Source: Gemmatimonadota bacterium
GTDB lineage: Bacteria; Gemmatimonadota; Gemmatimonadetes; Gemmatimonadales; Gemmatimonadaceae
Reading direction: 5' to 3'
Assembly (NCBI GenBank): GCA_038059315.1
Contig: JBBTJT010000058.1
Coordinates: 1 to 57,253, forward strand
DNA length: 57,253 bases
A program made the position numbers and the translations under genes. The notes under the pieces are model-generated. The model was not told the origin of the DNA. It saw only the letters and a program-made list of their open reading frames with translations, and made no database searches. Positions 3,514 to 25,270 of the stretch are shown here, piece after piece (within the stretch, counting starts at the first letter, position 1; every line of letters starts with the position of its first letter).

Positions 3514-6060
3514 TCAGACGGCGCGGGCGAAATGTCCGCGCGTGTATTGGTCACCAAGAACCGTGCGCACCGCATCGACAGCCGGCGACTCGCCCGCCAC
3601 CAGTGCATCGAGCATCTGCCGATACGCGCGGATGATCGCCGACACGTCGGCACCGCGCACGTTGAACACGGCCCGATAGCCCCGCACGCCGCCGCGCCAC
3701 AGTCGCGGCAGGTACTGCGCGCCGTCGATGGGGCGCGAGTGCAGCAGGCGGTTGCGACAGGCGCTGTCGGTGGCCACCGGGAACTGGTAGCCCGTGGGAT
3801 CGGTGAGCGCAACGTTCGCGTGCTTCTGCACGCACAGGTCGCGGCACGTCGTCACCTCGCGGTCGAACGCCGCGGAAAGCACGCAGTGCTCGAGCGTCAT
3901 TCCCTCGGGGCGCCCGTAGAGCAGGACGTCGAACCCCTCGCCGTTCCACGGCGACACCAGCTGCGTGATCTCGTCGGCAGTCAGCTCGATGGACGCGGTG
4001 ATGCGCCGCGCGCCGAGGGCGAAGTACTCGCGCGCCGTGTGCGCGTTGAAGCAGTTCACGGCATAGTCGGCCGTGACGTCGCGTCCCGCGCCGCCGAGTT
4101 CGGCGATGAGCCCGAGGTGTCCGCTGAGGAGCGGCAGTCCGAGGTCGAGCCACTTCTGCAGCGCGCGCCGGTCTTCGGGCCGCACGATGCTCGGGGTGCG
4201 CAATCGCAGCGTGATCCCCTGCCCCTCCAACTCGGCGGCCAGCGTCCTGACGCGGGCGAGCGGGGGCGCCGGGTGACGCAGGAAGGGGTCGAAGACAATC
4301 TCGGTGGCGCCCGCCGCGGCAGCTGCGCTGGCATCGTCGAGATTGAAGACTTCGGCGGCAAGCGTGAACGGCGGGCTCGTCGTCGCCGAAGCGGCGCTCG
4401 CCGCCGCCGCGGCGTTCGCCGCCGCCGCGGGTGCCGTGCGCGACGCGGGAGTCGTGACCGCCGCGGGCAGAGCGACCACCGCACGGATCCGTTCGCCTCG
4501 CTCCGCAAGCACGGCGCTTCGCGCCCAATCGCGCTGGACGAGCAGTTCGTCCGTGGCCCGCTGGCGCATGCGGTTGAGTTCGGAGACGGGGAGGAACAGG
4601 TTCGCGGCGAGTCCGGACCCGTCGACGTCCCGGAGCTCGAACGGAGTTTCGCCCAAGCGACCGAACTGCTCGCGAAGCTGGGCCGCGCCGAGCGCGCGCC
4701 TGGTCGCCGGGGCGAGCGTGGCGCCGGACAGCTGAGTGACCTGCGCACCGTCGGCGTCGAACATCGCCTTCAGCGGAGCGCCGGCTGTGCCGAACACCCG
4801 CACATCGAGCATGACGCGCGGGATCCGGCCGGCGTCGGCGAGCGCGGCGAAGGACGCACGGGCGTGCTCGAGCAGCTGCAGGTCGCTGGTGCGGAAGACC
4901 CGCCAGCCCAACGGCACGCGCGAGCGCCCGGTGACGGCCTGCCGCAGCAGCGCGCCATGGCGATGGACGGTGCGCACTGCACCCACGGCAAACCCCGTGC
5001 TCTCGGCGTGTCCGCCCGCTGGAGGCTCGAACCCCAGGCCGTCACCGACGTTGATGGGCGAGGTGACATCCACCAGCAGTTCGCCGTTCTCGTAACCGGT
5101 GACGACGCCGAGCTCGAGCCCGTGATTGTCGGGTTGAGTGCGCGTGATGTACTCGCGGCCGGCGCGGCCACCGTACATGCCGCCGGTGAAACCGCGACTG
5201 AAGATCTGCACGAGCGGGCGCGTCTCCTCGAACGTCGGCGGCGCAAACGTGCCCCGCTCCACCCGATCGAGCCACTCACGGTATCCCCTGGTGACCGTCG
5301 CCACGTACTCGGGCTTCTTTTTGCGCCCCTCGATCTTGAGGCAGCCCACTCCGGCGTCGGCGATTTCGGCGAGATGGTCAAACGCGCCAAGGTCCTTGGC
5401 CGAGATCAGGTAGCCGCGATCGAGTTCCTCCCCCGAGTCGAGGTCGGCGAGGACGTAGTCCTTGCGGCAACTCTGGGCGCACGATCCGCGGTTGGCGCTG
5501 CGCTCGGAGATCATCCCCGACATGAAGCACTGGCCGCTGTAGGCGATGCACAGCGCGCCATGCACGAAGGTCTCGAGGCCGAGGTCGGGGACGGCCGCGC
5601 GGATGCCCCGGATGTCGTCCAGCGTGTTCTCGCGGGCCAGCACCACGCGTTCGACGCCGAGGCGCCGCATCACGCGGGCGCCGCTCTCGTCGTGCACCGT
5701 CATCTGGGTGGAGCCGTGGATCTCGAAACCGGGATACACCACTTGGATGAGGCGCACGAGGCCGACGTCCTGCACGATGGCGGCGTCGATGCCCCGGTCG
5801 ATGCCCGCACCCAGGTAGGTCAGGCAATCGCCGAGTTCGGCGGGCTTCACCAGCGTATTGAGCGTCATATAGACCCGCACACCGCCTTCGTGCGCGATCT
5901 GGCAGGCGGTGGCGAGTTCATCGAGGGAGAGCTGGGCGCCCTCGTCGCGGGCGTTGAAGCGCGACGCGCCGAGGTAGACCGCATTGGCCCCGTTGGCGAC
6001 GGCGGCCCGCACGGCGTCGAGGCTTCCGGCCGGGGAGAGGAGTTCGGGGGCGCTGAGCAT
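3514..6060 (-). CDS. U32-family protein, double-length (848 aa): N-terminal U32 core with Fe-S type Cys motif, Ala-rich linker, second U32-like half
   Basis: ORF 3514..6156 trimmed to the ATG at 6060 ([31 protein letters not shown]). CX6CX15CX3C motif [28 protein letters not shown] and [11 protein letters not shown]. Linker [23 protein letters not shown]. The C-terminal half repeats a TIM-like U32 pattern ([16 protein letters not shown]). Confidence 0.85.
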
Positions 6061-6336
6061 TGGAGGTAAGATAGCAGCGGCCGACGGCAGTGCCGGGTTG
6101 GCGCGAGATCGCGCGGGAATCGGCCAAGCCCTTCCCCGGGGTGGCAATGTGCACACGGGCGATGGCGCACGGACTCGTCGGTGAAGCCCCTACGTAGAAC
6201 TCTCAAATAACCGACTGACAACGACTTCGCTCGCTCCCATACTCTCTCATCGCCCCGCCGTCCCGCGGCGATGCGAGGATTGGCCGAAAGGACGAGTGAG
6301 CGACTCATTTCAGTAATTGCACACTAGGAGAGTGCC

Positions 6337-7299
6337 ATGACAGATAGCACGCGTCGAGGTAGTGGAAGTCGCATGGCGGGGCCAGCGTTCTGGCTCGCGT
6401 GTAGTGTGCTTGCCGGAGCCGTGGCGTTCGCCCCGGCGGGAGCGCAGCAAAACAAGCCGGCGCCGAAGGCTGCAGTTGCGGGGGACGCCGGGACGTATAT
6501 CGGCGAAGAGACATGCCTTGGCTGCCACGAGAACAAGAAGGGGAGCAGGAGCCTGCATGCGAAGGTCGCCGACTCGCGGTCACCATCCGGCGGCAAGGGC
6601 TGTGAGAGCTGCCACGGCCCCGGCAGCAAGCACGCGGACGATCCGGAGAAGGTGAAGCCGATGCAGTTCGGCAAGGTCAGCGCCGTCGAGGCGTCGGCCG
6701 CCTGCACGACGTGCCACTCCACGAGCGGGCACGCCTTCTGGGCGAACAGCAAGCACGAAGCCCGCAACGTCTCCTGCACGTCGTGCCACAGCGTCCACTC
6801 ATCCAAGGGCGCGGTGCTGATGAAGGAGGCCACGCAGACCAAGCTCTGCGCCTCGTGCCACCAGGCGATCGTCAACAAGCTCAACCGCTTCAACCATATG
6901 CCGGTGCGCGAAGACAAGATGGCCTGCTCGGGGTGCCACAACGTGCACGGCTCGGCCAACGTGAAAATGCTCAGGGCCGGCACAAACGTCGACCAGAGCT
7001 GCACGAGCTGCCACACCGAGAAGCGTGGTCCCTTCCTGTGGGAGCACGCCCCGGTGGCCAACGCCTGCGTCACCTGCCACGACCCGCACGGGTCGAGCAA
7101 TGACCGCATGCTCGTCGCCAAGCAGCCGTATGTCTGCCAGCGCTGCCACGTCACCTCGCGGCACCCACCGACGGTCTACGACGGCTTCGTTCGAACCACC
7201 TCACAGAGCGCGAACAAGATCACGGGCCGCTCCTGCTTGAACTGCCACCAGCAGATTCACGGGTCCAATTCACCCAATGGCCGGGCGTTCCTACGCTAA
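6337..7299 (+). CDS. mtrA: Periplasmic decaheme c-type cytochrome, MtrA/DmsE/PioA/MtoA family (320 aa)
   Basis: Ten CXXCH motifs (CLGCH, CESCH, CTTCH, CTSCH, CASCH, CSGCH, CTSCH, CVTCH, CQRCH, CLNCH). Signal peptide ending APAGAQQ. Colinear with recalled Shewanella MtrA blocks CTSCHTEKRGPFLWEHAPV..CVTCHDPHGSSND.ML and C-terminal GRSCLNCHQQIHGSNSPNG. AGGAGAG Shine-Dalgarno 5 nt before the ATG. Confidence 0.9.
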   Translation: MTDSTRRGSGSRMAGPAFWLACSVLAGAVAFAPAGAQQNKPAPKAAVAGDAGTYIGEETCLGCHENKKGSRSLHAKVADSRSPSGGKGCESCHGPGSKHADDPEKVKPMQFGKVSAVEASAACTTCHSTSGHAFWANSKHEARNVSCTSCHSVHSSKGAVLMKEATQTKLCASCHQAIVNKLNRFNHMPVREDKMACSGCHNVHGSANVKMLRAGTNVDQSCTSCHTEKRGPFLWEHAPVANACVTCHDPHGSSNDRMLVAKQPYVCQRCHVTSRHPPTVYDGFVRTTSQSANKITGRSCLNCHQQIHGSNSPNGRAFLR

Positions 7300-7316
7300 G
7301 GGAGAGAGAGACTGCG

Positions 7317-9677
7317 ATGCGCAATAAATACATGATCTCGGCCGCGCTCCTGTTGCTCGCCTCCGCCAGCGTGGCGGATGCGCAGCAGACGGCCGCGGCG
7401 CCGGCAAAGGCTCCGGCATTGGAACAGAGATGGGAGCTCGGCTTCCGTGGCACGACGACGACCGGCGACGAGGCCCGCTATGAGCGGTACCGGGACCTCC
7501 AGAGCGGGCTCGCCAGCAAGATCTGGCTTGGCAAGGAAACCGACGCGGTGGCGTATGACTTCAGCGCCGCCAACGTCGGCTACAACGACCAGGCATATGC
7601 CTTCAACTACAACAAGTTCGGGAAGATGAAGTTCACGGCGGAGTTCACCGGCCAGCCGCTGAACTACGCCTACAACACGCTGACACCCTTCACGTACGCC
7701 GGGAACAACAAGTGGACGCTCGATGCGGCCACCCGCACCCGCGTGCAGAACAAGGAAGCCGGCGTCGTCGGCATTGCGAACAGCGCCGCGACGGCCCTGA
7801 CGGGGTCGATCTACCGCGGCCTCGCCACCAACTTCCCGATGTCGGCGCAGCGCGATGCGTTCTCGGCCGGCATGCAGTACCGCGTGACCGAGATGGCCGC
7901 GGTCGACGTCGCGTTCAAGACGACGAAGAAGAGCGGCAACCAGCCGTGGGGCGCTTCCTTCGCGTTCAGCGACGCCAATGAAGTCCCGATGGCGCTCGAC
8001 AACCGGACCACGGAGTTCACAGCCGGCGTCGAGGTGAACAAGCCGCAATACGGCATGCTGCGCGCCGAGTATCAGGGGTCGTTCTTCACGAACAACTTCC
8101 TGTCGATGGAGTGGGACAACCCGCTCCGCGCCACGGACTACACGAACGGCAAGCCGGCCACGTCCACGAGGAGCGGTCCGTGGGACAACAGCGGCTACAG
8201 CAACGCCAACGGCCCGGCGTTCGGCCGCATAGCGATGGCGCCGAGCAACCAGATGAACACGTTCCGCGTCTACGGCCTCTACAAGATGCCGGGGCACACG
8301 ACGCTGAACGGCCACCTGTCGTTCACCAAGATGTCGCAGGACGAGGACATCATTCCATTCACCACCAACACGGTGATCGCGAACTCGGCGGTGTACGCCA
8401 TCTTCCCTGGCCTGGCGGCGCTGCCGCGCCCCACGGCGAACGCCACCGTCAACGGCCTGAACGCGGTGATCAACTTCGCCACGCGGCCCACTGACTACTT
8501 CGCGTTCGACATGAAGTACCGGTTCGACGACCACGACAACGTGACCCCGACCTGGGACTACACGTACAACGTCCGGTTCGACGCGGTGCCGGAATACACG
8601 CCGGGGTTGGCTTCCCACGGCCTGGACATCCGCCAGAACACCATGGAAGCCGGGGCGACGTTCACGCTGCCCCACCGGGGCACGGCGCTCAAGGTCGGCT
8701 ACATCATGGATGACGTGAAGCGCGGTGGGCGGGCGTTCAGCGACATGACGGACTACACGTTCCGCGCCTCGCTCGATGCCTACCAGAACCAGTACTTCAA
8801 CCTCCGTGGCATCGTCGAGAGCACGCGCCGCATCGGCAGCGGGTTCTCCCTCGAATATCTCGAAGAGGGCGGCGGTCAGAACGCCCTGCGCTTCTATGAC
8901 GAAGCCGACATGGATCGTCTCAAGAGCACGCTCATCCTGACGCTCACGCCGTCGAGCAAGCTCGACGTCAACCTGTCGCTCAACACGATCGACGACGAGT
9001 ACACGGGCGAGGGGCACGAGTTCGGCCTGCTCAGCAGCAAGAACACGTCGGTGAACCTGTCAGCGAACTTCTACGCCAATGACAAGGTCACCTTCGGCGC
9101 CATGTACGGGCTGGACAAGTATTCGTCCAACCAGGCCTCGCGCAACGCCAGTCCGCCGACCACGACGCCCGGTGCGTACGACAGCTGGAGTGACCCGAAC
9201 CGCAACTGGTACCTCGACAACGACGAGGACGTGAAGAGCGCCGGCGTCTGGGTGGACCTGCTCCAGGCCCTGCCCGACACCGACATCCGCTTCGCGTTCA
9301 ACTACAGCGATTCGGACAACGGGTTCGACATGTTCGGCCCGCGCATCAACCAGTTCCTGGCGCCCGACAACGTGGCGCTGCGGACGACGGGCGACAGCCG
9401 GGCGTGCTCGACGGGCATCACCGTCTGCTACATCCCGCAGCCCAACGTGACCAACACGTGGTCGCAGCTGAAGGTCAGCCTGAGGCACATGTTCCGCCCG
9501 ACGATGGGCGTGGGCCTGGGCTATCAGTATGAGAAGCTCGAGATCGTCGATTTCGCGACGACGGACCTCGCTCCCGGCGTGCCGCGCATGGACCCGCTCG
9601 GCGTGATCTCCACGGGCTACGGCAACCGCCCGTACACGGGCGGCACGTTCATTGCCCGGTTGATCTACATGTTCTAG
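7317..9677 (+). CDS. mtrB: MtrB/PioB/MtoB-family outer-membrane beta-barrel porin partner of the decaheme cytochrome (786 aa)
   Basis: Starts 17 nt after mtrA, with a GGGAGAGAGAG Shine-Dalgarno. Signal peptide MRNKYMISAALLLLASASVADAQQ. Tyr/Asn/Gly/Phe-rich alternating composition and C-terminal ...ARLIYMF (aromatic OMP terminus). Size and gene order match the MtrB/PioB family. Confidence 0.8.
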   Translation: MRNKYMISAALLLLASASVADAQQTAAAPAKAPALEQRWELGFRGTTTTGDEARYERYRDLQSGLASKIWLGKETDAVAYDFSAANVGYNDQAYAFNYNKFGKMKFTAEFTGQPLNYAYNTLTPFTYAGNNKWTLDAATRTRVQNKEAGVVGIANSAATALTGSIYRGLATNFPMSAQRDAFSAGMQYRVTEMAAVDVAFKTTKKSGNQPWGASFAFSDANEVPMALDNRTTEFTAGVEVNKPQYGMLRAEYQGSFFTNNFLSMEWDNPLRATDYTNGKPATSTRSGPWDNSGYSNANGPAFGRIAMAPSNQMNTFRVYGLYKMPGHTTLNGHLSFTKMSQDEDIIPFTTNTVIANSAVYAIFPGLAALPRPTANATVNGLNAVINFATRPTDYFAFDMKYRFDDHDNVTPTWDYTYNVRFDAVPEYTPGLASHGLDIRQNTMEAGATFTLPHRGTALKVGYIMDDVKRGGRAFSDMTDYTFRASLDAYQNQYFNLRGIVESTRRIGSGFSLEYLEEGGGQNALRFYDEADMDRLKSTLILTLTPSSKLDVNLSLNTIDDEYTGEGHEFGLLSSKNTSVNLSANFYANDKVTFGAMYGLDKYSSNQASRNASPPTTTPGAYDSWSDPNRNWYLDNDEDVKSAGVWVDLLQALPDTDIRFAFNYSDSDNGFDMFGPRINQFLAPDNVALRTTGDSRACSTGITVCYIPQPNVTNTWSQLKVSLRHMFRPTMGVGLGYQYEKLEIVDFATTDLAPGVPRMDPLGVISTGYGNRPYTGGTFIARLIYMF

Positions 9678-9697
9678 TCTCTTGCGCGTTGGACCAG

Positions 9698-9737
9698 CGA
9701 CGGGGTGTACCGCAGCGGCTTGCGGTACGCCCCGTCG
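9698..9737 (+). terminator. Strong stem-loop terminator after mtrB
   Basis: CGACGGGGTGTACCGCA gcggct TGCGGTACGCCCCGTCG: a 17-bp stem (one G-U pair) with a 6-nt loop, 21 nt after the mtrB stop. No obvious U-tract. Confidence 0.6.
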
Positions 9738-9792
9738 GCGCGCTGAAACCCGGCGGGTGCCCGGCGCGTAGAGCCATCAACCGGAGGCGCTC

Positions 9793-10095
9793 ATGCTCAG
9801 TCTCGCCATTTCCCTTGCAGTCATCGCGGTGGGTGCCCTGATGGGCTACGGCACCGCCCGACGCTTCGTCCGCGACCGTCTGCGCTTCGTCGACTCGGCG
9901 CACAAGCCGGCCGTGGCGGTGGTGGCCGGCCTCGCCGGATTCCTGATCGCGCTGCCAATCGTCAACGTCATCTCGATCCTGCCGCTCGTGCAGCTCGGCG
10001 CCGGCGCTGCCCTCACGCTGGGACTGTCCGTCGGCATGGGGGTCAAGGCCGGGTCCCGGGACGTGCGGGAAGGTCGCTACGAGTTGCACTCGTAA
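9793..10095 (+). CDS. Small integral membrane protein (100 aa), function unknown
   Basis: GGAGG Shine-Dalgarno 6 nt upstream of the ATG. About three hydrophobic helices (LAISLAVIAVGALMGY, AVAVVAGLAGFLIALPIV, LVQLGAGAALTLGLSVGMG). Confidence 0.55.
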   Translation: MLSLAISLAVIAVGALMGYGTARRFVRDRLRFVDSAHKPAVAVVAGLAGFLIALPIVNVISILPLVQLGAGAALTLGLSVGMGVKAGSRDVREGRYELHS

Positions 10096-10232: not shown

Positions 10233-10892
10233 CTAGTTCCGGCCGAACCCTTCCACATGCACGTCCAGGTTGTGGTTCACGCGGATTCCGTAGATGCCGT
10301 CCGTCTCATTCATGACCTTCGCGCTGTAGGCCGCCACCTGCTGGTTGTTGACGAAGAGGCGGACGGAATCGGCGTCGGCGCGCACTTCCAGTGCGTTGGT
10401 GGCCTTCCCCGCACCTTCGACCTTCGCCACCGCCTTGGACTCCGACCAGTCGGTAATGGTCTGTACGTCCTTGGCGTTGGCGCGGTGCTTCACCATGAAC
10501 TTGCCGCCCTGACGCACGATGAAGTACAGGTAGGTTGCGTCGGCCGTGCCGAGCTTCTGGCCGCCGAACACGAGGCCGTAGGCTTCCGGGTGCGTGGACG
10601 CCTTCATCTGCGTGAATGTCGCCTTGATCGCGTACGGCCCACGGGCGACGTTGCCGGCGCTCCAGAAGATCGCAGCCGGGCCGGACGTGACGTGCATGCC
10701 CTTGCCCATGGCGCTGAAGGCCACGTCTTCCTTCCTGGCCGTCGGGCGATCCAGGGCGAACTCCCATCCGGCAGGCGCCGGGCCGCTGGACCTGGCCTTC
10801 GTGTCGGGATCGGCATCGGGCTTCATGCCCTGCTGCGCCGACGCCGTGGCGGCGGTGGCCGCGAAGAGGACAACTGCGAGGGTGTGACGCAT
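10233..10892 (-). CDS. Secreted protein with concanavalin/LamG-like (DUF1080-like) jelly-roll domain (219 aa)
   Basis: ORF 10233..11114 trimmed to the ATG at 10892, preceded by a GGAG Shine-Dalgarno. Signal peptide MRHTLAVVLFAATAATASAQQ. Pattern GWEF...GPYAIKATF...YGLVFGG...YLYFIVRQGGKF...IRVNHNLDVHVEGF resembles the DUF1080 / 3-keto-disaccharide hydrolase fold (from memory). Confidence 0.6.
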   Translation of the reverse strand: MRHTLAVVLFAATAATASAQQGMKPDADPDTKARSSGPAPAGWEFALDRPTARKEDVAFSAMGKGMHVTSGPAAIFWSAGNVARGPYAIKATFTQMKASTHPEAYGLVFGGQKLGTADATYLYFIVRQGGKFMVKHRANAKDVQTITDWSESKAVAKVEGAGKATNALEVRADADSVRLFVNNQQVAAYSAKVMNETDGIYGIRVNHNLDVHVEGFGRN

Positions 10893-11004
10893 CGTTGGGG
10901 GCTCCATCGGGTTGGGAAATCGGGCCGCGAGGCACCGGCGACCGGGGAATACGGAATACTTCAATACCCCGGTGCCGCACCGCAAGTTCAGCGATGCATC
11001 ACGG

Positions 11005-11187
11005 TCAGGGGTGACGCCCGGGTGGCTTGCGGAAACGCAGCAGCCAGGCGGCCGCCACGCAGGCCAGTCCGGCCCAGCGCAGCGCGGGCACGTCGAGCCG
11101 GATGCCCGCGCCAAAGAGGACGATACCGATGAGCGCCAGCGAGAGCTTCATCGTGGTGAGGGCAGTCATGTCGGCGATTTCATCCAT
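11005..11187 (-). CDS. Possible small two-helix membrane protein (60 aa)
   Basis: Hydrophobic segments LSLALIGIVLFGAGI and WAGLACVAAAWLL. Sits 30 nt after the stop of the upstream same-strand gene. No convincing Shine-Dalgarno, so the call is weak. Confidence 0.3.
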   Translation of the reverse strand: MDEIADMTALTTMKLSLALIGIVLFGAGIRLDVPALRWAGLACVAAAWLLRFRKPPGRHP

Positions 11188-14705: not shown

Positions 14706-16318
14706 GCCTGGTCTCCGAGCCGGCTGGGCAGCACGAACGGCCCGAGGTGCGGGCCGGGATTCTGCCACGCCGCGCGCAAGGCGATGCCCAGCACCGTGCG
14801 CGTGTCCTCGGGATAGACGATCGTGTCGAGATAGCCTCGGGCGGCCGCGTAGCGCGCATCGAGCTGGTGCTCATAGTCGGCGCGCAACGCCTCCATGGCC
14901 TCCTGCGTCTCGTCGGACGGCGCAACGCCCGCCTTGCGCGCCATTTCGAGAGACGTGCCGTGCACGGCCTGCACGGCCGACTGCCCTTCCATGACAGCCA
15001 TGCGTCCCGTCGGCCAGGAGAAGATGAAGTCGGGATCGAAACCCTGCCCGGCCATGGCATAGTAGCCGGCCCCCGATGCGTGATTCAGGGTCAGCACGAT
15101 CTTGGGAACGCTCGCCGTGGCCATGGCCTCGACGAAGCGCGCGCCGGCGCGAATGATGCCGGAATGCTCCGCCTCCCGGCCAACCATGAAGCCGGAGACA
15201 TCCTGCACGAAGAGCAGCGGGATGCCCTGCCGGTCGCAGCGGTCGATGAAGAACGCCACCTTTTCCGCGCTCTCCGTATAGATGATCCCGCCAAAGCGCG
15301 CCGGTTGTCCGGCGGGCCCCTTGAGCAGGGCGCGCAGGTTGGCGATGACACCCACGGGGGTTCCCTCGATGCGCGCGTCGCCGCAGATCATCTCCCGGGC
15401 GAGGTTCGGCTGGAACTCGTCGAGCACGCCATCATCGAGGATGGTGCGAAGGACGGCGCGCATGTCGTACGGCATGCGATGGTCGTTGGGCAGCAACTCG
15501 TACAGCGCCGACGGATCGACGCCCGGCGTCGCGTCGGCGTCGAACGGCGCGATGCGCACCGGTGGCGCGAGGCGCCCCACGAGGTCGCGAATCTTCAGCA
15601 GGCAGGCGTCGTCGTCGTCCACGGCGTAGTGCGCCACCGCCGAGATCTCGGTGTGGGTGGTGGCGCCGCCGAGCGTCTCGCTGTCGATCACGGCGCCGGT
15701 GGCCCCCTGCACGAGGTTGGGCCCGCCCAGCCCCATGAACGACGTGCCCTTGACCATCAGGATCACGTCGCTGAGCGCCGGCAGGTACGCGCCGCCGGCG
15801 ATGCAGGGCCCCATGACGGCGGCGATCTGCGGAATGCGCAGGTATCGCCGCATGAGCGAGTTGTAGTAGAAGATGCGCGCCGCGCCGTACTGCCCCGGAA
15901 AGACGCCGCCCTGGTACGGCAGGTTGACGCCTGCGGAATCGACGAGGTAGATGATCGGCAGCCGGCACCGCATGGCGCATTCCTGCGCGCGCAGGATCTT
16001 GGGAATGGTCTCCGGCCACCAGGAGCCGGCCTTGACCGTGGCATCGTTGGCCACCACCACGCACGGACGACAGTCGATGTGCACCAGGCCGGTGACGACG
16101 CCGGCCGCCGGCGCCTCGCCATTGTACCTGTCGTGGGCGACGAGCAGGCCGAACTCGAGGAAATGGGAGTCGGCGTCCTTGAGGCGGGCGATGCGTTCGC
16201 GCGCGGTCAGTTTGCCCTGTTGATGCTGGCGCTCGATCTTGTCGGGGCCGCCGCCGAGGCGAAGGCGCTGCTCGAGCTCGCGCGATTCCGCGCTGAGCTC
16301 AGCGAGGCGGGTCGTCAC
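14702..16318 (-). CDS. Acyl-CoA carboxylase carboxyltransferase (beta) subunit, methylcrotonyl-/geranyl-CoA carboxylase type (538 aa)
   Basis: The track ORF 14702..16768 is a fusion artefact. The real start is GTG at 16318 (GTGA overlap with the B12-subunit stop). [54 protein letters not shown] and [18 protein letters not shown] are carboxyltransferase hallmarks. Confidence 0.88.
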
Positions 16319-16728
16319 GCGTCCTGCGCCTGCTTGGCGGCGTACCAGTCGCGGATGTACTCGATGAGGTCGGTCGTCGGCGTACCAGGCCCGAAGAGCC
16401 TGCCGAGGCCGAGTTCCTCGAGCCGGGTCATGTCTTCCCTGGGAATGATGCCGCCGCCGGTGATCAGGATGTCGTCGCGCCCCTGGGCGGTGAGCAACTC
16501 CCGCACGCGCGGAAAGAGCGTCATGTGGGCGCCGGACAGGATGGAGAGTCCGACGACGTCGACGTCCTCCTGCACTGCCGCACTGGCGATCATTTCGGGC
16601 GTCTGGTGCAGGCCCGTGTAGATGACTTCCATGCCGGCATCGCGGAGGGCGGCGGCGACGACCTTGGCGCCGCGGTCGTGGCCGTCGAGGCCGGGCTTGG
16701 CAACGAGAACTCGAATCGGGCGTTGCAT
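16315..16728 (-). CDS. Cobalamin-binding small subunit of a methylmalonyl-CoA-mutase-family enzyme (137 aa)
   Basis: ORF trimmed to the ATG at 16728 ([37 protein letters not shown]). Contains the DxHxxG B12-binding motif (DGHDRG) and later GGGIIP. Confidence 0.88.
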
Positions 16729-16779
16729 GGGTACCCCAAATAAGCGGTTCGGGCCCCTGAATTGACACCCCCTAGTGAA

Positions 16780-16819
16780 GTGGTGGATTCCCTTGCCGGG
16801 GACGGCGATTTGCCACCAC
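16780..16819. promoter_or_regulatory. Nested stem-loop in the 325-bp divergent intergenic region (possible 5' leader element of the minus-strand operon)
   Basis: GTGGTGG attccctt GCCG ggga CGGC gatttg CCACCAC: a 7-bp outer stem enclosing a 4-bp inner hairpin, 52-91 nt upstream of the ATG at 16728. Function unknown. Confidence 0.3.
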
Positions 16820-17053
16820 AACAGTTGAGGGAAACTGCCCACTTACAAGTGCTGGGCGGACGCTATCATCCGACAACCGACCATGTATAGGGCAAAACCT
16901 TTCGTGTCGCTTCGCAGTTCGGCCGACTGCTCGCTCACGACCTCGGGAAGTTGACGCGTTCCCCGATGACCCTGCGCGGCACCAGCGCCGAGTGCAGCCG
17001 CTCCAGTTCCGTAGTCGCTTTCCCCCAACCTCCCAGGTTCAAGGAGAAGTCAG

Positions 17054-17377
17054 ATGCGCGCACTTCTGCTGATCGGCATTCTTGCCGCCGCCGTTTCCTC
17101 CAGCGCCGCCGCACAGGCTCCCGACGGCAAGGAAGTTTACGACCGTCTCTGCAAGAAGTGCCATGGCGCCACGGGCGTGCCGTCGAAGGTGATGAAGACG
17201 AAGTTCGAGAAGATCGCCGCGTTCGATGCCGCGTTCGTGGCGAAACGCCCCGTCGACGAGATGGTGAAGGTCCTCGTCAAGGGCAAGGGCGAGGGCATGA
17301 AGTCGTTCAGCGAGAAGATGAAGCCCGACGAGATGACCGCAGTCGCCAAGTACGTGCATGAACTCGCCAAGCCGTAG
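17054..17377 (+). CDS. Monoheme class I c-type cytochrome, periplasmic (107 aa)
   Basis: AAGGAGAAG Shine-Dalgarno. Signal peptide MRALLLIGILAAAVSSSAAAQA. A single CKKCH heme site and Met-rich distal region (GEGMKSFSEKM). Confidence 0.85.
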   Translation: MRALLLIGILAAAVSSSAAAQAPDGKEVYDRLCKKCHGATGVPSKVMKTKFEKIAAFDAAFVAKRPVDEMVKVLVKGKGEGMKSFSEKMKPDEMTAVAKYVHELAKP

Positions 17378-17419
17378 ATCACGGCCTTCGGAGGCGCCAC
17401 GCAGGACTCGAGTACGGGC

Positions 17420-17470
17420 GGCGGCGATGGAGCCCGGGCAGGCTGCATCGCCGCCGTGCCGCACCGGCAC
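17420..17470 (+). terminator. Two adjacent GC-rich hairpins after the monoheme cytochrome gene (terminator or processing site)
   Basis: GGCGGCGATG(G)AGCC cgggca GGCT(G)CATCGCCGCC (17420-17455), followed by GTGCCG cac CGGCAC (17456-17470). No U-tract. Confidence 0.35.
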
Positions 17471-17535
17471 GATCTCCGCGCTTCGATAGCGCTCGTGGTT
17501 CCACCGGGCGGAGACTCCCCTGACGAGGGCAGTTC

Positions 17536-18054
17536 ATGCAGCACGCGCGACACTTCATACGTCTGCTCGCCCTGATCGCGCTGGCCGTCACCGGGTTCCT
17601 CGGCGTACGCGCGCAGGCGGTCCCTAAGGACTTTGGCACGCTCGGACACTTCCGGGCGTCGGCCATCCCCGAGATCGCGGCCCGCGAGCCGCGCCACCTG
17701 GGGAGCGAGGCCTGCGGCGACTGCCACGACGCGGAGTTTGCGGCGTGGAAGTCCGGCAAGCACTCCGTGCCCCAGTGCGAAGCGTGCCACGGCCCGGGCC
17801 TTCTGCACGTGAAGATGATGAGCGAGGACTCGGTGGACGCCTACCCCGACCGCATAAAGCAGAATCCCAACGCATTGCGGGTGATGAGCGGCATCCTGGA
17901 ATGCAAATGGTGCCACCTCAAGACGTTCGAACGGCCGAGCGCCCTCAAGTCCATCACCAACGTGCAGAAGCACGTCGTCAGCAAGGGGGGACAGTTCACG
18001 CCCCAGTCGAGGTGCATCGACTGTCACAATCCGCACACGGCGGTGGTCAAGTGA
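17536..18054 (+). CDS. Tetraheme c-type cytochrome with N-terminal membrane anchor or signal (172 aa)
   Basis: Four CXXCH motifs (CGDCH, CEACH, CKWCH, CIDCH). N-terminal hydrophobic helix FIRLLALIALAVTGFLGV. The motif CGDCH..W..S.H....CEACHGPG..H is typical of multiheme (MtrA/NrfB-like) cytochromes. Confidence 0.85.
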   Translation: MQHARHFIRLLALIALAVTGFLGVRAQAVPKDFGTLGHFRASAIPEIAAREPRHLGSEACGDCHDAEFAAWKSGKHSVPQCEACHGPGLLHVKMMSEDSVDAYPDRIKQNPNALRVMSGILECKWCHLKTFERPSALKSITNVQKHVVSKGGQFTPQSRCIDCHNPHTAVVK

Positions 18055-18866
18055 CGAGCCCCTGGAACAAGCCGGAGATCTCGAGGCGGGAGTTCTTCGA
18101 GAAGTGCGCGGAGACGGGGGCCCAGACTTTCGTTTTCGGCGGCCTCTTCCTGACGACCGCGAAGCTGAGGCTGCCGCGGGAATCCGCCCACGGGTCCGGC
18201 GGCGGCGCCGACCCGGACCAGGCGATCTACGGCTTCGTGGTGGACACCACGGCGTGCATCGGGTGCGGCTCGTGCGTGCGGGCGTGCAAGGCGGAGAACA
18301 ACGTGCCCGACGGGTTCAACCGCACCTGGGTGGAGCAGTACACGTTCTTCCCGAACGGCGAGGTCATCGTGAACTCGCCGCAGGGCGGAGAGAACGGGTT
18401 CCCTGACGACCTGCCGGAACGCAACCTGCCCATTGAACTCAAGCTGCTGCCGGTGCGCGGCTTCTTCGTGCCCAAGCTGTGCAATCATTGCATCGACACG
18501 CCGTGCATCCAGGTCTGCCCCGTCGGTGCATCGTTCGTGACGAAGGAAGGCGTGGTGCTGATCGACGACGAGCGCTGCGTCGGCTGCGGCTACTGCGTGC
18601 AGGCCTGCCCGTTCGGCTCGCGCTTCCTCAACCCCGAGACCAAGTGCGCGGACAAGTGCACGTGGTGCTACCACCGGATCACCAAGGGGTTGATGCCGGC
18701 GTGCGTCCAGGCCTGCCCGGCCAAGGCCCGCATTTTCGGCAACGTCAGCGACCCGCTCAGTGGAATCAGCCGGATCCTCGCCGGCAATCGCGTGCAGGTG
18801 CTGAAGTCGTACCTCGGCACGCGTCCGCGCACCCGCTACATCGGCCTCGACTCCGAGGTCATCTAG
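18051..18866 (+). CDS. Tat-exported 4Fe-4S ferredoxin-type subunit, NrfC/PsrB/DsrO family (271 aa)
   Basis: GTG start at 18051 (GTGA overlap with the tetraheme stop). Twin-arginine motif ISRREFFEK. Four Cys clusters: CIGCGSCVRAC, CNHCIDTPCIQVCP, CVGCGYCVQACP and CTWC...ACVQACP. Confidence 0.88.
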   Translation: MTSPWNKPEISRREFFEKCAETGAQTFVFGGLFLTTAKLRLPRESAHGSGGGADPDQAIYGFVVDTTACIGCGSCVRACKAENNVPDGFNRTWVEQYTFFPNGEVIVNSPQGGENGFPDDLPERNLPIELKLLPVRGFFVPKLCNHCIDTPCIQVCPVGASFVTKEGVVLIDDERCVGCGYCVQACPFGSRFLNPETKCADKCTWCYHRITKGLMPACVQACPAKARIFGNVSDPLSGISRILAGNRVQVLKSYLGTRPRTRYIGLDSEVI

Positions 18867-18867
18867 C

Positions 18868-20106
18868 ATGAATCACTTCGTCACCGAAGGGTACGTCCTG
18901 CCGAACCAGATGCACATCTACTGGACGACGATGATCGTGCTGTATCCGTACATCACCGGCATCGTCGCCGGCGCGTTCATCATCTCGTCGCTGCACCACG
19001 TGTTCGACAAGCACGAACTCGAGCCGGTCAGCCGGTTCTCGATGATCATGGCGTTCGCCTTCCTGCTGTTCGCCACCATGCCGCTCATGGCGCACCTGGG
19101 GCACCCGGAGCGGGCCTTCAACATGATGTTCACCCCCAACGTCACGTCGGCGATGGCGGGATTCGGCTTCATCTACACCGCCTATCTCCTCATCCTGGCG
19201 GTGGAGATCTGGCTGCTGTATCGCGTGGACATCGTGTACCTGTCCCTGAACGCGAAGTCCCCGGCGATGCGGAGCCTGTACTGGCTGATGGCGCTCGGCG
19301 TGCAGGACATCACGCCGGAAGCCAAGGCGCTCGACCGCAAGGTCATGATCTTCCTGGCGTCGATCGGCATCCCGGCGGCGTGCGGGCTGCACGGGTACGT
19401 GGGCTTCATCTTCGGCGCCATCAAGGCCAACCCGTGGTGGGCCAGCCCGCTGATGCCCGTCATCTTCCTGCTCAGCGCCATCGTGTCCGGCATCGCGATG
19501 GTCCTGGTGTGCTACATCGCCGTGCAGTGGATGATGAAGCGCCCCATCGACGGGCCGTGCGCCCAGTCGCTCATCGAGTCGGCGTGGTACTTCCTCATCA
19601 TCGACGTCACGCTCGAATTGCTGGAGCTGCTGAACCGCGCCTACATGGCCAACGAGGACTGGGTGATCCTGAAAACGCTCGTCACCACCAAGCTGTTCAC
19701 CAGCTTCTTCGTCATCCAGATCGTGCTCGGTTCGATTCTCCCATTCCTGCTGCTCGGCTCCGTCGTGGTGTTCAAGGACCGGATGCCCGCGCGGGCGCGC
19801 GACGCCATCGGCTTCACGGGGGGGCTCCTGCTGCTGGTGCAGGTGGCGGCCATGCGCTGGAACGTGGTGATGGGCGGGCAGATGTTCTCGAAGAGCCTCC
19901 GGGGTTTCCTGACCTTCGACGTCGAGATCTACGGGCGGGAGGGACTGCTCGTGGCCGGGCTCATGCTTTCGCTGCCGTTCATCACGATGCTGGTCATCTC
20001 GCGGATACTGCCGCTGTGGGGCGGCATCGAGACGTTCCCGAAGAAGTGGATGAAGGAGGTGGAGCCGCCGCGCCGGCCGTTGAAGGGCTACTCGAAGTTT
20101 GGATGA
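18868..20106 (+). CDS. NrfD/PsrC/DsrP-like polytopic membrane quinone-interacting subunit (412 aa)
   Basis: The ATG lies 1 nt after the FeS-subunit stop. About nine hydrophobic segments by eye. N-terminal YWTTMIVLYPYITGIVAGAFIISSL resembles the first NrfD helix. Confidence 0.85.
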   Translation: MNHFVTEGYVLPNQMHIYWTTMIVLYPYITGIVAGAFIISSLHHVFDKHELEPVSRFSMIMAFAFLLFATMPLMAHLGHPERAFNMMFTPNVTSAMAGFGFIYTAYLLILAVEIWLLYRVDIVYLSLNAKSPAMRSLYWLMALGVQDITPEAKALDRKVMIFLASIGIPAACGLHGYVGFIFGAIKANPWWASPLMPVIFLLSAIVSGIAMVLVCYIAVQWMMKRPIDGPCAQSLIESAWYFLIIDVTLELLELLNRAYMANEDWVILKTLVTTKLFTSFFVIQIVLGSILPFLLLGSVVVFKDRMPARARDAIGFTGGLLLLVQVAAMRWNVVMGGQMFSKSLRGFLTFDVEIYGREGLLVAGLMLSLPFITMLVISRILPLWGGIETFPKKWMKEVEPPRRPLKGYSKFG

Positions 20107-22487: not shown

Positions 22488-24178
<1,691 letters not shown>

Positions 24179-24182
<4 letters not shown>

Positions 24183-25270
24183 ACGGACTCTCCGGTCATC
24201 AGGGTGCCGCTCCGCTGCAGCAACGCGTCGGCGACGGCGTACGGGGTGGTGCGGCCGTCGGCGAGATCGGCGACCTGCCCGTCGATCCACGCATTGGTGG
24301 CGGCATCACCCCACAGCCGCCGGCCGAGCCGCTGAAAGACCACGTCCTTCACCCGCTCGCGCAGTCGCGCCCGGCGTCGCACGGCAAGCTCGCCGCTTCG
24401 CTCAAGATACGCAAAATGCCGTTCGAGGGCGGCCAGCAACTCGGGAATCCCCTCTCCCGTCGTCGCCGACGAACGCAGCACGGCGGGCGTCCAGCGCTCG
24501 GCGTCGTCGCCCGCGTCAGCCGGTGCGGGGTGCGGAGTGGTGAGGCTCCGCAGGTCGATGCCATGATGGGCCGGGGCGTTCTGCAGGCCGTGCCCGCCAC
24601 GCAGGCCGAGCATCGCCTCGATGTCCGTGCGCAGGCGGTCGGCGCCTGGACGATCCGCCTTGTTCACCACGAAGACGTCGGCGATCTCCATGAGGCCGGC
24701 CTTCAGCGTCTGGATGGCGTCACCCGACTCGGGGACCAGCACGACGAGCGACGTGTCCGCCGTGCGGGCGATGTCGAGTTCGCTCTGGCCCACGCCGACC
24801 GTCTCGATGAGGATGCAGTCGAGCCCGAAGGCGTCGAGCACGTCGCAGACTTCGCGCGTCGTGGCGGCCAGGCCGCCCAGCGACCCCCGCGTGGCCATCG
24901 ACCGGATGAAGACGCCCGGGTCGAGCGCCACGGACTCCATGCGCACGCGATCGCCGAGCAGCGCGCCCCCGGAGAACGGTGACGTGGGGTCGACGGCGAT
25001 GATGCCCACCGTGCGACCCTGCCGGCGCAGCAGCGCCACCAGCTGCGCGGTGAGCGTGCTCTTGCCGGCGCCCGGCGGTCCCGTCAACCCGATGCGACGC
25101 GAGCGTCCCACTCGCGGGTGGAGCGCGCCCAGCAACAGGTCGGCGCCGGCGCGCCCGTCTTCGACGATGGAAACCGCACGGGCCAGCGCCGCCTTGCGCC
25201 CGGCGGTGAAGTCGACGAGCAGCCGGGCCAGCGACGCCGGCGCGCCTTCGGGAAGCGTGATCGCCGTCAT
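24179..25270 (-). CDS. meaB: Methylmalonyl-CoA mutase-associated GTPase MeaB/ArgK (363 aa)
   Basis: P-loop [47 protein letters not shown] and VVNKADR, which are canonical MeaB blocks. Confidence 0.92.

Follow-up and report, generated by a model that had tools for sequence, protein, structure and literature searches.

A probable MtrAB-type porin-cytochrome conduit in an uncultured clade of Gemmatimonadaceae

Introduction

Conduits of the MtrAB, MtoAB and PioAB type are the best-understood route for electrons across the Gram-negative outer membrane, and what is known of their function comes almost entirely from the Proteobacteria. In this study, we analysed a 57,253-nt stretch of DNA, hereafter the window (contig JBBTJT010000058.1, assembly GCA_038059315.1), from a metagenome-assembled genome (MAG) of the Gemmatimonadaceae lineage. 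The window carries two adjacent genes, one for a decaheme c-type cytochrome (6337-7299) and one for an outer-membrane β-barrel (7317-9677), which are described here as an MtrAB-type pair. Gemmatimonadaceae of groundwater and lakes are normally regarded as aerobic heterotrophs, and the preliminary description of the locus rightly remarked that the phylum Gemmatimonadota is not a textbook lineage for extracellular electron transfer (EET).

Among the described systems, the Shewanella MtrCAB set joins the decaheme MtrA and the barrel MtrB to the surface cytochrome MtrC. The MtoAB conduit of Sideroxydans and Gallionella and the PioAB conduit of Rhodopseudomonas palustris TIE-1 do without a surface cytochrome; the former goes with MtoD and CymA/MtoC, the latter with PioC, a high-potential iron-sulfur protein (HiPIP). 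MtrAB-type pairs without MtrC are reported from many phyla (PMC6344600; PMC9769843), and a few Gemmatimonadota are reported to have MtrCAB (PMC8805035; PMC11316326). Reading the direction of electron flow from such gene sets is difficult: according to Baker et al. (PMC8805035), MtoA and PioA are not set apart by function as a clade, and the MtrCAB route is reversible. FeGenie places MtoAB under "possible oxidation/reduction" and MtrAB-only under "probable reduction" (PMC7005843); moreover, MtoA rescues a ΔmtrA mutant, and in AMB-1 MtrAB alone is enough for iron reduction (PMC7005843). The quinone link also varies, NetBCD in Aeromonas being a CymA substitute that is clustered with mtrCAB (PMC8805035).

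Results

A decaheme cytochrome gene paired with an MtrB/PioB-family barrel gene

The first gene of the pair (6337-7299, forward strand) encodes a 320-aa c-type cytochrome with a Sec signal peptide and exactly ten CXXCH motifs, at residues 60, 89, 123, 147, 171, 197, 222, 244, 267 and 300; its only cysteine outside these motifs, C22, lies inside the signal peptide. The NCBIfam model for DmsE-family decaheme cytochromes (TIGR03508) scored it at 250.9 bits, above the curated cutoff of 192.2, and a GSU2203-family model gave 251.7 bits, under its own cutoff of 325. In a search of the PDB, residues 55-318 aligned with residues 62-331 of 6R2Q chain A, the MtrA of Shewanella baltica, colinearly through all ten hemes (E = 1.7e-61). 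The PDB name table labels this chain 'Cystathionine beta-synthase', a labelling artefact, since the aligned sequence is clearly a decaheme MtrA. Three peptide blocks that had been likened to MtrA/DmsE are indeed present, at residues 222, 244 and 297. Candidate distal histidines are H74, 99, 140, 154, 187, 204, 237, 251, 276 and 308; together with the ten CXXCH motifs they are kept across the clade and in a paralogous type described below, and nearly all are found in S. baltica MtrA. The protein is thus confirmed as a decaheme c-type cytochrome of the DmsE/MtrA family.

After a gap of 17 nt, the second gene (7317-9677, forward strand) encodes a 786-aa protein with a signal peptide and a C-terminal Phe (...RLIYMF), whose composition is that of an outer-membrane protein (OMP; 0.3% Cys, rich in N, T, Y, D and G). 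The Pfam family MtrB_PioB (PF11854) matched it over its full length with 274 bits (gathering score 23), and close relatives bear the NCBI name 'MtrB/PioB family'. An AlphaFold2 (AF2) model computed from a 32-sequence alignment was all-beta (predicted local distance difference test, pLDDT, 75.4; predicted template-modelling score, pTM, 0.67). When its DSSP string was parsed by eye, 26 long strands could be counted; between them, long loops of at most 62 residues alternate with turns of 2-6 residues, which is the canonical OMP topology. Foldseek ranked MtrB itself (6R2Q chain B) first among PDB structures, with E = 3.2e-32 and a TM-score of 0.85 on the target, the next class being 22-strand TonB-dependent receptors (E about 5e-8, TM-score 0.3-0.45). 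As modelled, the barrel would have 26 strands and be wide enough for a decaheme cytochrome and, by analogy with 6R2Q, it would physically sheathe its partner in the outer membrane.

Shine-Dalgarno-like sites (AGGAG and GGGAG) precede the starts of the two genes. The decaheme gene adjoins the barrel gene in the order cytochrome then barrel in all related loci with a pair; the loci were collected in genome and metagenome scans and are cited by labels such as L014. The pair had been proposed to be of the MtrA/MtrB type from its heme motifs, spacing, size and C-terminus; these features were all borne out, and the profile and structure matches agree with the assignment. The second protein models as a large barrel of the MtrB family, and the cytochrome does not fall among multiheme proteins that lack a porin.

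Relationship to known conduits and distribution of the pair

The Shewanella conduit is closest in structure: its gene order is the same, the decahemes are colinear, and the barrel model superposes on MtrB with the same number of strands. Differences are nevertheless apparent. The window barrel is only about 16% identical to Shewanella MtrB and about 90-130 residues longer, the extra residues falling in extracellular loops as parsed. No MtrC, OmcA or MtrF partner is encoded in the window or in the related loci, and CymA is absent from the window; accordingly, the earlier observation that no MtrC/OmcA, CymA or HiPIP gene is adjacent holds. The annotated open reading frames (ORFs) of the window include no gene of the NapC/NirT or CbcL type. 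Shewanella MtrB carries an N-terminal CXXC; this motif is absent from the window clade, whose barrels have an invariant cysteine pair in a late loop instead. These residues, C697 and C704, are the only two cysteines of the window barrel, are invariant in 32 homologs, sit close to the C-terminus in a long loop that is extracellular by the parse, and probably form a disulfide.

Over its core, the cytochrome shares 40% identity with Shewanella MtrA, as against 33% with the representative of the R. palustris PioA cluster. A neighbour-joining tree of 92 decaheme cluster representatives was star-like, the PioA clade being taken as the clade of long N-termini that contains the R. palustris PioA cluster (P0247). 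In this tree, the window cytochrome belongs to a clade of its own, sister to the paralog clade, apart from both the S. baltica MtrA clade and the PioA clade and roughly equidistant from them.

The clade is large: 607 barrel homologs passed the E-value cutoff, and the 120 matches listed were mostly full-length with 98-49% identity. Those of the 120 that carry names are mostly Gemmatimonadaceae/Gemmatimonadetes MAGs, with a few Acidobacteria MAGs further out, and the closest of the named ones, as far down as about 58% identity, are all Gemmatimonad. A scan of species-representative genomes found 12 loci, almost all of them in Gemmatimonad MAGs from groundwater and lakes. The nearest named cytochromes outside the phylum, at about 40% identity, come from Methylomirabilis, Eiseniibacteriota and Planctomycetota MAGs. 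Four relatives (L002/L013, L003, L004 and L005) carry two tandem pairs, whose copies are 65-77% identical to the window proteins. A multiheme cytochrome of the size of MtrC was not found in any related Gemmatimonad locus.

Given that the cytochrome fits a model named for DmsE, the pair could also be compared with DmsEF, a two-gene MtrAB homolog without MtrC (PMC8805035), in which case it would feed a surface-located terminal reductase, a molybdoenzyme, and not minerals or soluble species. However, no gene for a DmsAB-type molybdopterin or other extracellular reductase is adjacent to the pair in the window or in about 20 related loci, and we regard this explanation as very unlikely.

The pair is carried on a discrete cassette

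Comparison with relatives by blastn revealed sharp boundaries around the pair. In L026 and L035, homology to the window runs up to 6051 and resumes at 9740-9741, with only 51 and 85 nt in between, respectively, so that an empty site exists at the same position in two relatives. In L016, which is 92% identical in nucleotide sequence, homology ends at 9737, the last base of a hairpin, and different genes lie beyond. With breakpoints this sharp, 6052-9740 (3.7 kb) is a discrete indel unit, which takes in an upstream region, both genes and the hairpin. The cassette-specific upstream region (6052-6336, forward strand) is absent from L026 and L035, is AT-richer and holds a promoter-like site and a candidate operator; the 180 nt directly 5' of the cytochrome gene (6157-6336) have a GC content of 59% against about 67% in the flanks, as had been noticed earlier. 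The cassette contains only two ORFs and no integrase, and neither terminal, direct or inverted repeats nor a target-site duplication were found at its ends; thus, there is no transposon signature.

The preliminary description considered the pair possibly acquired. The AT-richer upstream region, the bulk GC of the pair (0.62-0.66 versus 0.67-0.72) and the presence or absence of the cassette at one chromosomal site could suggest a foreign island recently received from Proteobacteria. The codon usage argues otherwise: GC at third codon positions (GC3) is 0.86 and 0.92 for the two genes and 0.80-0.96 for the neighbours, and the GC deficit sits in codon positions 1 and 2, because of amino-acid composition. 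Moreover, the nearest outgroups belong to other uncultured phyla, not to the Proteobacteria. Since GC3 is native and the closest homologs are Gemmatimonad, recent foreign import is not supported, and we hold it to be even less probable than the DmsEF-like role. What stands of the earlier proposal is movement on a smaller scale: the cassette moves or gets lost inside the Gemmatimonad clade.

A cytochrome c/tetraheme/iron-sulfur/NrfD cluster is encoded downstream

The pair had been described as stand-alone and autonomous. As a unit it is indeed discrete and brings along a promoter-like region and a hairpin; however, a second group of redox genes that escaped the preliminary description (17054-20106, forward strand) starts 7.3 kb 3' of it and is contiguous with such pairs in relatives. 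The first gene (17054-17377, forward strand) encodes a 107-aa periplasmic class-I monoheme cytochrome c (PF13442, PF00034) that may act as an electron shuttle; its best PDB matches are Kuenenia c-552 and cytochromes c6, and no match to MtoD was obtained among PDB chains at E <= 0.1. The second (17536-18054, forward strand) encodes a 172-aa tetraheme c-type cytochrome with an N-terminal hydrophobic segment and four CXXCH motifs, which matches Pfam families of the c7/c3 type and does not match NrfB. This gene and that of the decaheme are the only two ORFs with at least three CXXCH motifs in the 57 kb. The third gene (18051-18866, forward strand), whose GTG start overlaps the tetraheme stop, as does that of its L014 homolog, encodes an NrfC/TtrB/DsrO-like 4Fe-4S protein (Pfam Fer4_11) with a twin-arginine translocation (Tat) motif, SRREFF; it scored 200 bits with the NCBIfam TtrB model and 167 bits with NrfC, both under the equivalog cutoffs. 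The fourth (18868-20106, forward strand) encodes a 412-aa integral membrane subunit of the NrfD/PsrC family (PF03916, 130 bits), presumably quinone-interacting, for which the NrfD and DsrP equivalog models likewise scored under their cutoffs.

The trio of multiheme cytochrome, Tat-exported iron-sulfur protein and NrfD-family protein (17536-20106), with its overlapping or abutting genes, has the architecture of the NrfBCD and NetBCD modules. Judged from sequence, this likeness is one of superfamily-level architecture and not of orthology: the window cytochrome is a tetraheme without a match to NrfB, and its iron-sulfur and NrfD-family proteins fall far under the NrfC and NrfD equivalog cutoffs. 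As with Aeromonas NetBCD, an NrfBCD-like quinol dehydrogenase that feeds MtrCAB, such genes stand beside mtr-type genes in relatives. The module can also be likened to alternative complex III (ACIII), which combines a multiheme cytochrome c, an iron-sulfur protein and an NrfD-family protein and has in addition the molybdopterin-like domain of ActB, as well as ActD and ActF.

We examined how constant the association is among relatives. A metagenome scan with the tetraheme protein as query yielded 80 loci, mapped by tblastn, in which homologs of the tetraheme, iron-sulfur and NrfD-family proteins followed each other in this order wherever the locus was long enough. A pair is contiguous with the cytochrome c/tetraheme/iron-sulfur/NrfD genes in L014 (also L001), L019, L020, L025, L031, L034 and L035. 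In L014, whose barrel is 78% identical to that of the window, SacDH, ECH, AtuA, carboxyltransferase and B12 genes on the reverse strand are followed on the forward strand by a paralogous pair (MtrA'B'), MtrAB, the monoheme c, the tetraheme c and the iron-sulfur protein genes. The genes that part pair and cluster in the window thus stand beside a single, uninterrupted cytochrome cluster in L014. A homolog of the monoheme c gene lies directly 3' of the barrel gene in L014 and L001 and heads operons of the order cytochrome c-MtrA'B'-tetraheme in L019, L020 and L034. In L019, L020, L025, L031, L034 and L035, the pair is a deep paralog, about 40% (cytochrome) and 22% (barrel) identical to the window proteins; its cytochrome passes TIGR03508 and its barrel is matched by the Pfam MtrB_PioB family. 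The near-identical strains L017 and L018 share the arrangement of the window; like L016, they stem from the Hainich H41 wells. The cluster occurs without any pair in L026, L027 and L029, and more distant relatives (31-36% identity) keep the tetraheme-iron-sulfur-NrfD trio without Mtr genes. Because of this recurrent linkage to pairs, the NrfCD-type module and the monoheme c are likely the inner-membrane and periplasmic partners of the conduit, replacing CymA.

Some features of the surrounding DNA were also observed. In several relatives, the paralog pair sits between the monoheme c and tetraheme c genes (5390-8681 in L014, 1105-3719 in L019), and in its place the window has a 158-nt gap (17378-17535). 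Between the two subunit genes of methylmalonyl-CoA mutase, B12-binding small subunit (16315-16842, reverse strand) and large subunit (22488-24290, reverse strand), lie the cytochrome c/tetraheme/iron-sulfur/NrfD cluster, a Band-7 gene and further ORFs. Many relatives keep the junction of B12 gene and cytochrome c gene, which is the insertion point of pairs in L014, L019, L020, L034 and L035.

Comparison with the Mto and Pio systems and the direction of electron flow

Fe(II) oxidation or electron uptake of the PioAB/MtoAB kind had been favoured over reduction. Electrons from Fe(II) would then pass through the conduit to the monoheme c and on to a terminal oxidase or to denitrification, the tetraheme/iron-sulfur/NrfD module serving reverse flow into the quinone pool. 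Neither the window nor any related locus encodes MtrC, as in the two-gene MtoAB and PioAB conduits. Furthermore, the class-I monoheme c gene directly 3' of the pair in L014 stands where MtoD does, in an organisation resembling mtoA-mtoB-mtoD (PMC8805035); the barrel, at 786 aa, is larger than the crystallised MtrB chain (649 residues) and similar in size to that of PioAB; and the MAGs come from groundwater and lakes, where Fe(II) is assumed to be available.

On the other hand, the PDB search detected no similarity between the monoheme c and MtoD, and the predicted quinone link of the Gemmatimonad system is the tetraheme/iron-sulfur/NrfD module and not CymA/MtoC. The cytochrome is closer to MtrA than to PioA in core identity and belongs to neither clade. 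With 320 aa as compared with about 540 aa for PioA, it lacks the N-terminal extension of about 200 aa, and neither a HiPIP (PioC) nor a CymA gene is adjacent. NrfCD-type modules, moreover, are classically quinol oxidisers. The argument for uptake had been drawn from the absence of MtrC alone, and the MtrC-less architecture is ambiguous in the literature (PMC7005843; PMC8805035); the stated preference for uptake is therefore not upheld, and we regard this direction as somewhat less probable than outward flow. Phylogeny was tried as a guide to direction and dropped, as the tree is star-like, the clade is roughly equidistant and direction does not map onto clades (PMC8805035).

Candidate regulatory elements of the cassette

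Upstream of the decaheme gene we found a palindrome, CTACGTAG (6190-6197), 146 nt 5' of the start codon. Its core, TACGTA, occurs once in the 57-kb window, at 6191. Related loci totalling about 151 kb contain 15 TACGTA sites, 14 of which precede, by no more than 260 nt, either a decaheme gene or a cytochrome c gene at the head of a pair-containing operon; the latter is the case in L014, L019, L020 and L034 (the sites in these loci being 5248 and 12635, 513, 2913 and 3047, and 6012 and 6048, respectively). We therefore propose TACGTA as a candidate operator for a regulator. The motif is absent upstream of cytochrome c clusters that have no embedded pair (17054 in the window, L017, L018 and L026). 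Co-regulation of the pair and the cytochrome c/NrfCD cluster through TACGTA was considered and rejected, since the motif is missing 5' of 17054 and tracks pair-containing operons in relatives.

A promoter scan gave one promoter-like match, the sigma-70-like candidate CTGACA-17-CATACT (6215-6243, forward strand), which on its own is not above chance. Its -35 element, CCGACTGACA, keeps its position across relatives though the surrounding sequence has diverged. Indeed, in an alignment of the upstream regions of 14 pairs, TACGTA, CCGACTGACA about 20 nt later and the ribosome-binding site within a small inverted repeat were all conserved. In the window, this repeat (6317-6336) holds the ribosome-binding site of the decaheme gene in its loop, GCAC-ACTAGGAGA-GTGC; the equivalent GCACC-TCAGGAG-GGTGC is kept 5' of most relatives' decaheme genes and may be a hairpin for translational control.

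The 3' end of the cassette is marked, by inverted repeat, folding and homology breakpoints, by a GC-rich hairpin with a 17-bp stem (9698-9737, forward strand). The 17-nt arms (9698-9714 and 9721-9737) are 94% complementary and fold with -60.8 kcal/mol (z = -4.55). This stem had been called a terminator. It folds strongly, as expected, but it has no T-tract and was not called by a terminator scan, and hence is no canonical terminator. A strong GC hairpin was present 3' of the barrel gene in all relatives checked, in some of them with T-tracts, and the element of the window is probably a terminator. Several relatives share another hairpin sequence, GCGGCACC-NCC-loop-GGN-GGTGCCGC, at about 12370 in L002, 12400 in L003, 15030 in L004, 12375 in L005 and 7690 in L007. 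The window hairpin differs from this GCGGCACC/GGTGCCGC type, which may be a clade-wide terminator or an element resembling repetitive extragenic palindromes.

Neighbouring genes

The pair had been placed between unrelated housekeeping genes of opposite orientation. This is true of the upstream side, where a U32 peptidase gene on the reverse strand is the only divergent neighbour; the downstream neighbour (9793-10095) lies on the same strand as the pair and encodes a conserved 100-aa membrane protein without a family match. The longest U32 peptidase ORF (3514-6156, reverse strand) begins with a GTG at 6156 that probably lies upstream of the real start: homology with relatives stops at 6051, and an in-frame ATG (MLSAPELL...) is found near 6060. 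With a start near 6060, the intergenic region 5' of the decaheme gene widens to about 280 nt.

Further downstream, a 293-aa ORF with a signal peptide (10233-11114, reverse strand; real start probably the internal MRHTLAVV) has no match in Pfam or NCBIfam. It is kept in the near-identical strain L017 and missing at the same position in L026, which points to a second small indel beside the cassette. The remaining genes of the window are core housekeeping genes (RNase G, AspRS, PhoH, RlmN, trp, pur, LexA, HtrA and methylmalonyl-CoA mutase). Rfam gave no match in the window or in the 5' region of the pair.

Discussion

In our judgement, the pair is probably an MtrAB-type porin-cytochrome conduit that is native to an uncultured Gemmatimonadaceae clade, is carried on a cassette moving within that clade and would have an NrfCD-type partner. 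Several observations weigh against parts of this interpretation. The profiles TIGR03508 and PF11854 agree with it, but the NCBIfam MtrB/PioB model (TIGR03509) gave the barrel 206.3 bits, under its curated cutoff of 240.05. Neither the barrel sequence nor a 32-sequence profile matched any PDB chain, so that the link to MtrB in the PDB is by fold comparison only. As to the partner, the NrfCD-type cluster of the window is 7.3 kb away, behind oppositely oriented genes and without TACGTA; the pairs embedded in the clusters of relatives are mostly of the paralog type and not of the type of the window; and the seven loci L002-L008, which have the pair type of the window, show no such cluster within 10 kb.

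If the conduit works as its relatives do, the decaheme cytochrome, with ten bis-histidine hemes, would be exported by Sec and thread the lumen of the 26-strand barrel, giving a heme wire of about 80 Å across the outer membrane, a length taken by analogy with MtrA (6R2Q). With no cytochrome of the MtrC type at the surface, the last heme of the wire, where the barrel opens outward, would trade electrons directly with soluble or colloidal redox species, candidates being Fe chelates, Fe2+, humics, flavins and mineral surfaces. On the periplasmic side, the monoheme c and the tetraheme/Tat-iron-sulfur/NrfD module (17054-20106) would link the conduit to the quinone pool in the place of CymA.

The direction of flow cannot be read from the sequence. 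We lean slightly outward, because modules of the NrfCD, NetBCD and ACIII type characteristically oxidise quinol. On this outward route, electrons would pass from menaquinol through the NrfCD-type module and the cytochromes to the conduit and to an extracellular acceptor under O2 limitation.

A wider proposal, which we make tentatively and with somewhat less than even confidence, is that the clade has an EET system of its own, with two deep MtrC-less paralog types that are often duplicated, a quinone link made of the monoheme c and a tetraheme/Tat-iron-sulfur/NrfD module (NetBCD-like or resembling a reduced ACIII), and a regulator acting at TACGTA. If this is true, oligotrophic aquifers and lakes would harbour an abundant, overlooked group that is electroactive, in one direction or the other.

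The conduit family is well known, and its known mechanism is unchanged by these data; relatives of both genes already carry these family names by automatic annotation in NCBI and IMG. What is new here is the description of the Gemmatimonad clade, its tetraheme/NrfCD linkage and the TACGTA element: a literature search found no description of a Gemmatimonad MtrAB-only clade, of this linkage or of TACGTA, the reports for the phylum being of MtrCAB.

All together, the results add to the MtrAB family a large and internally diverse Gemmatimonad clade (607 homologs, with tandem duplicates and two paralog types), together with a candidate inner-membrane partner that is independent of CymA and a candidate operator. 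They provide a set of parts for asking whether widespread bacteria of groundwater and lakes join in the redox cycling of iron or humics. In addition, a conduit that lacks MtrC by nature lends itself to the question of how the direction of electron flow is determined.

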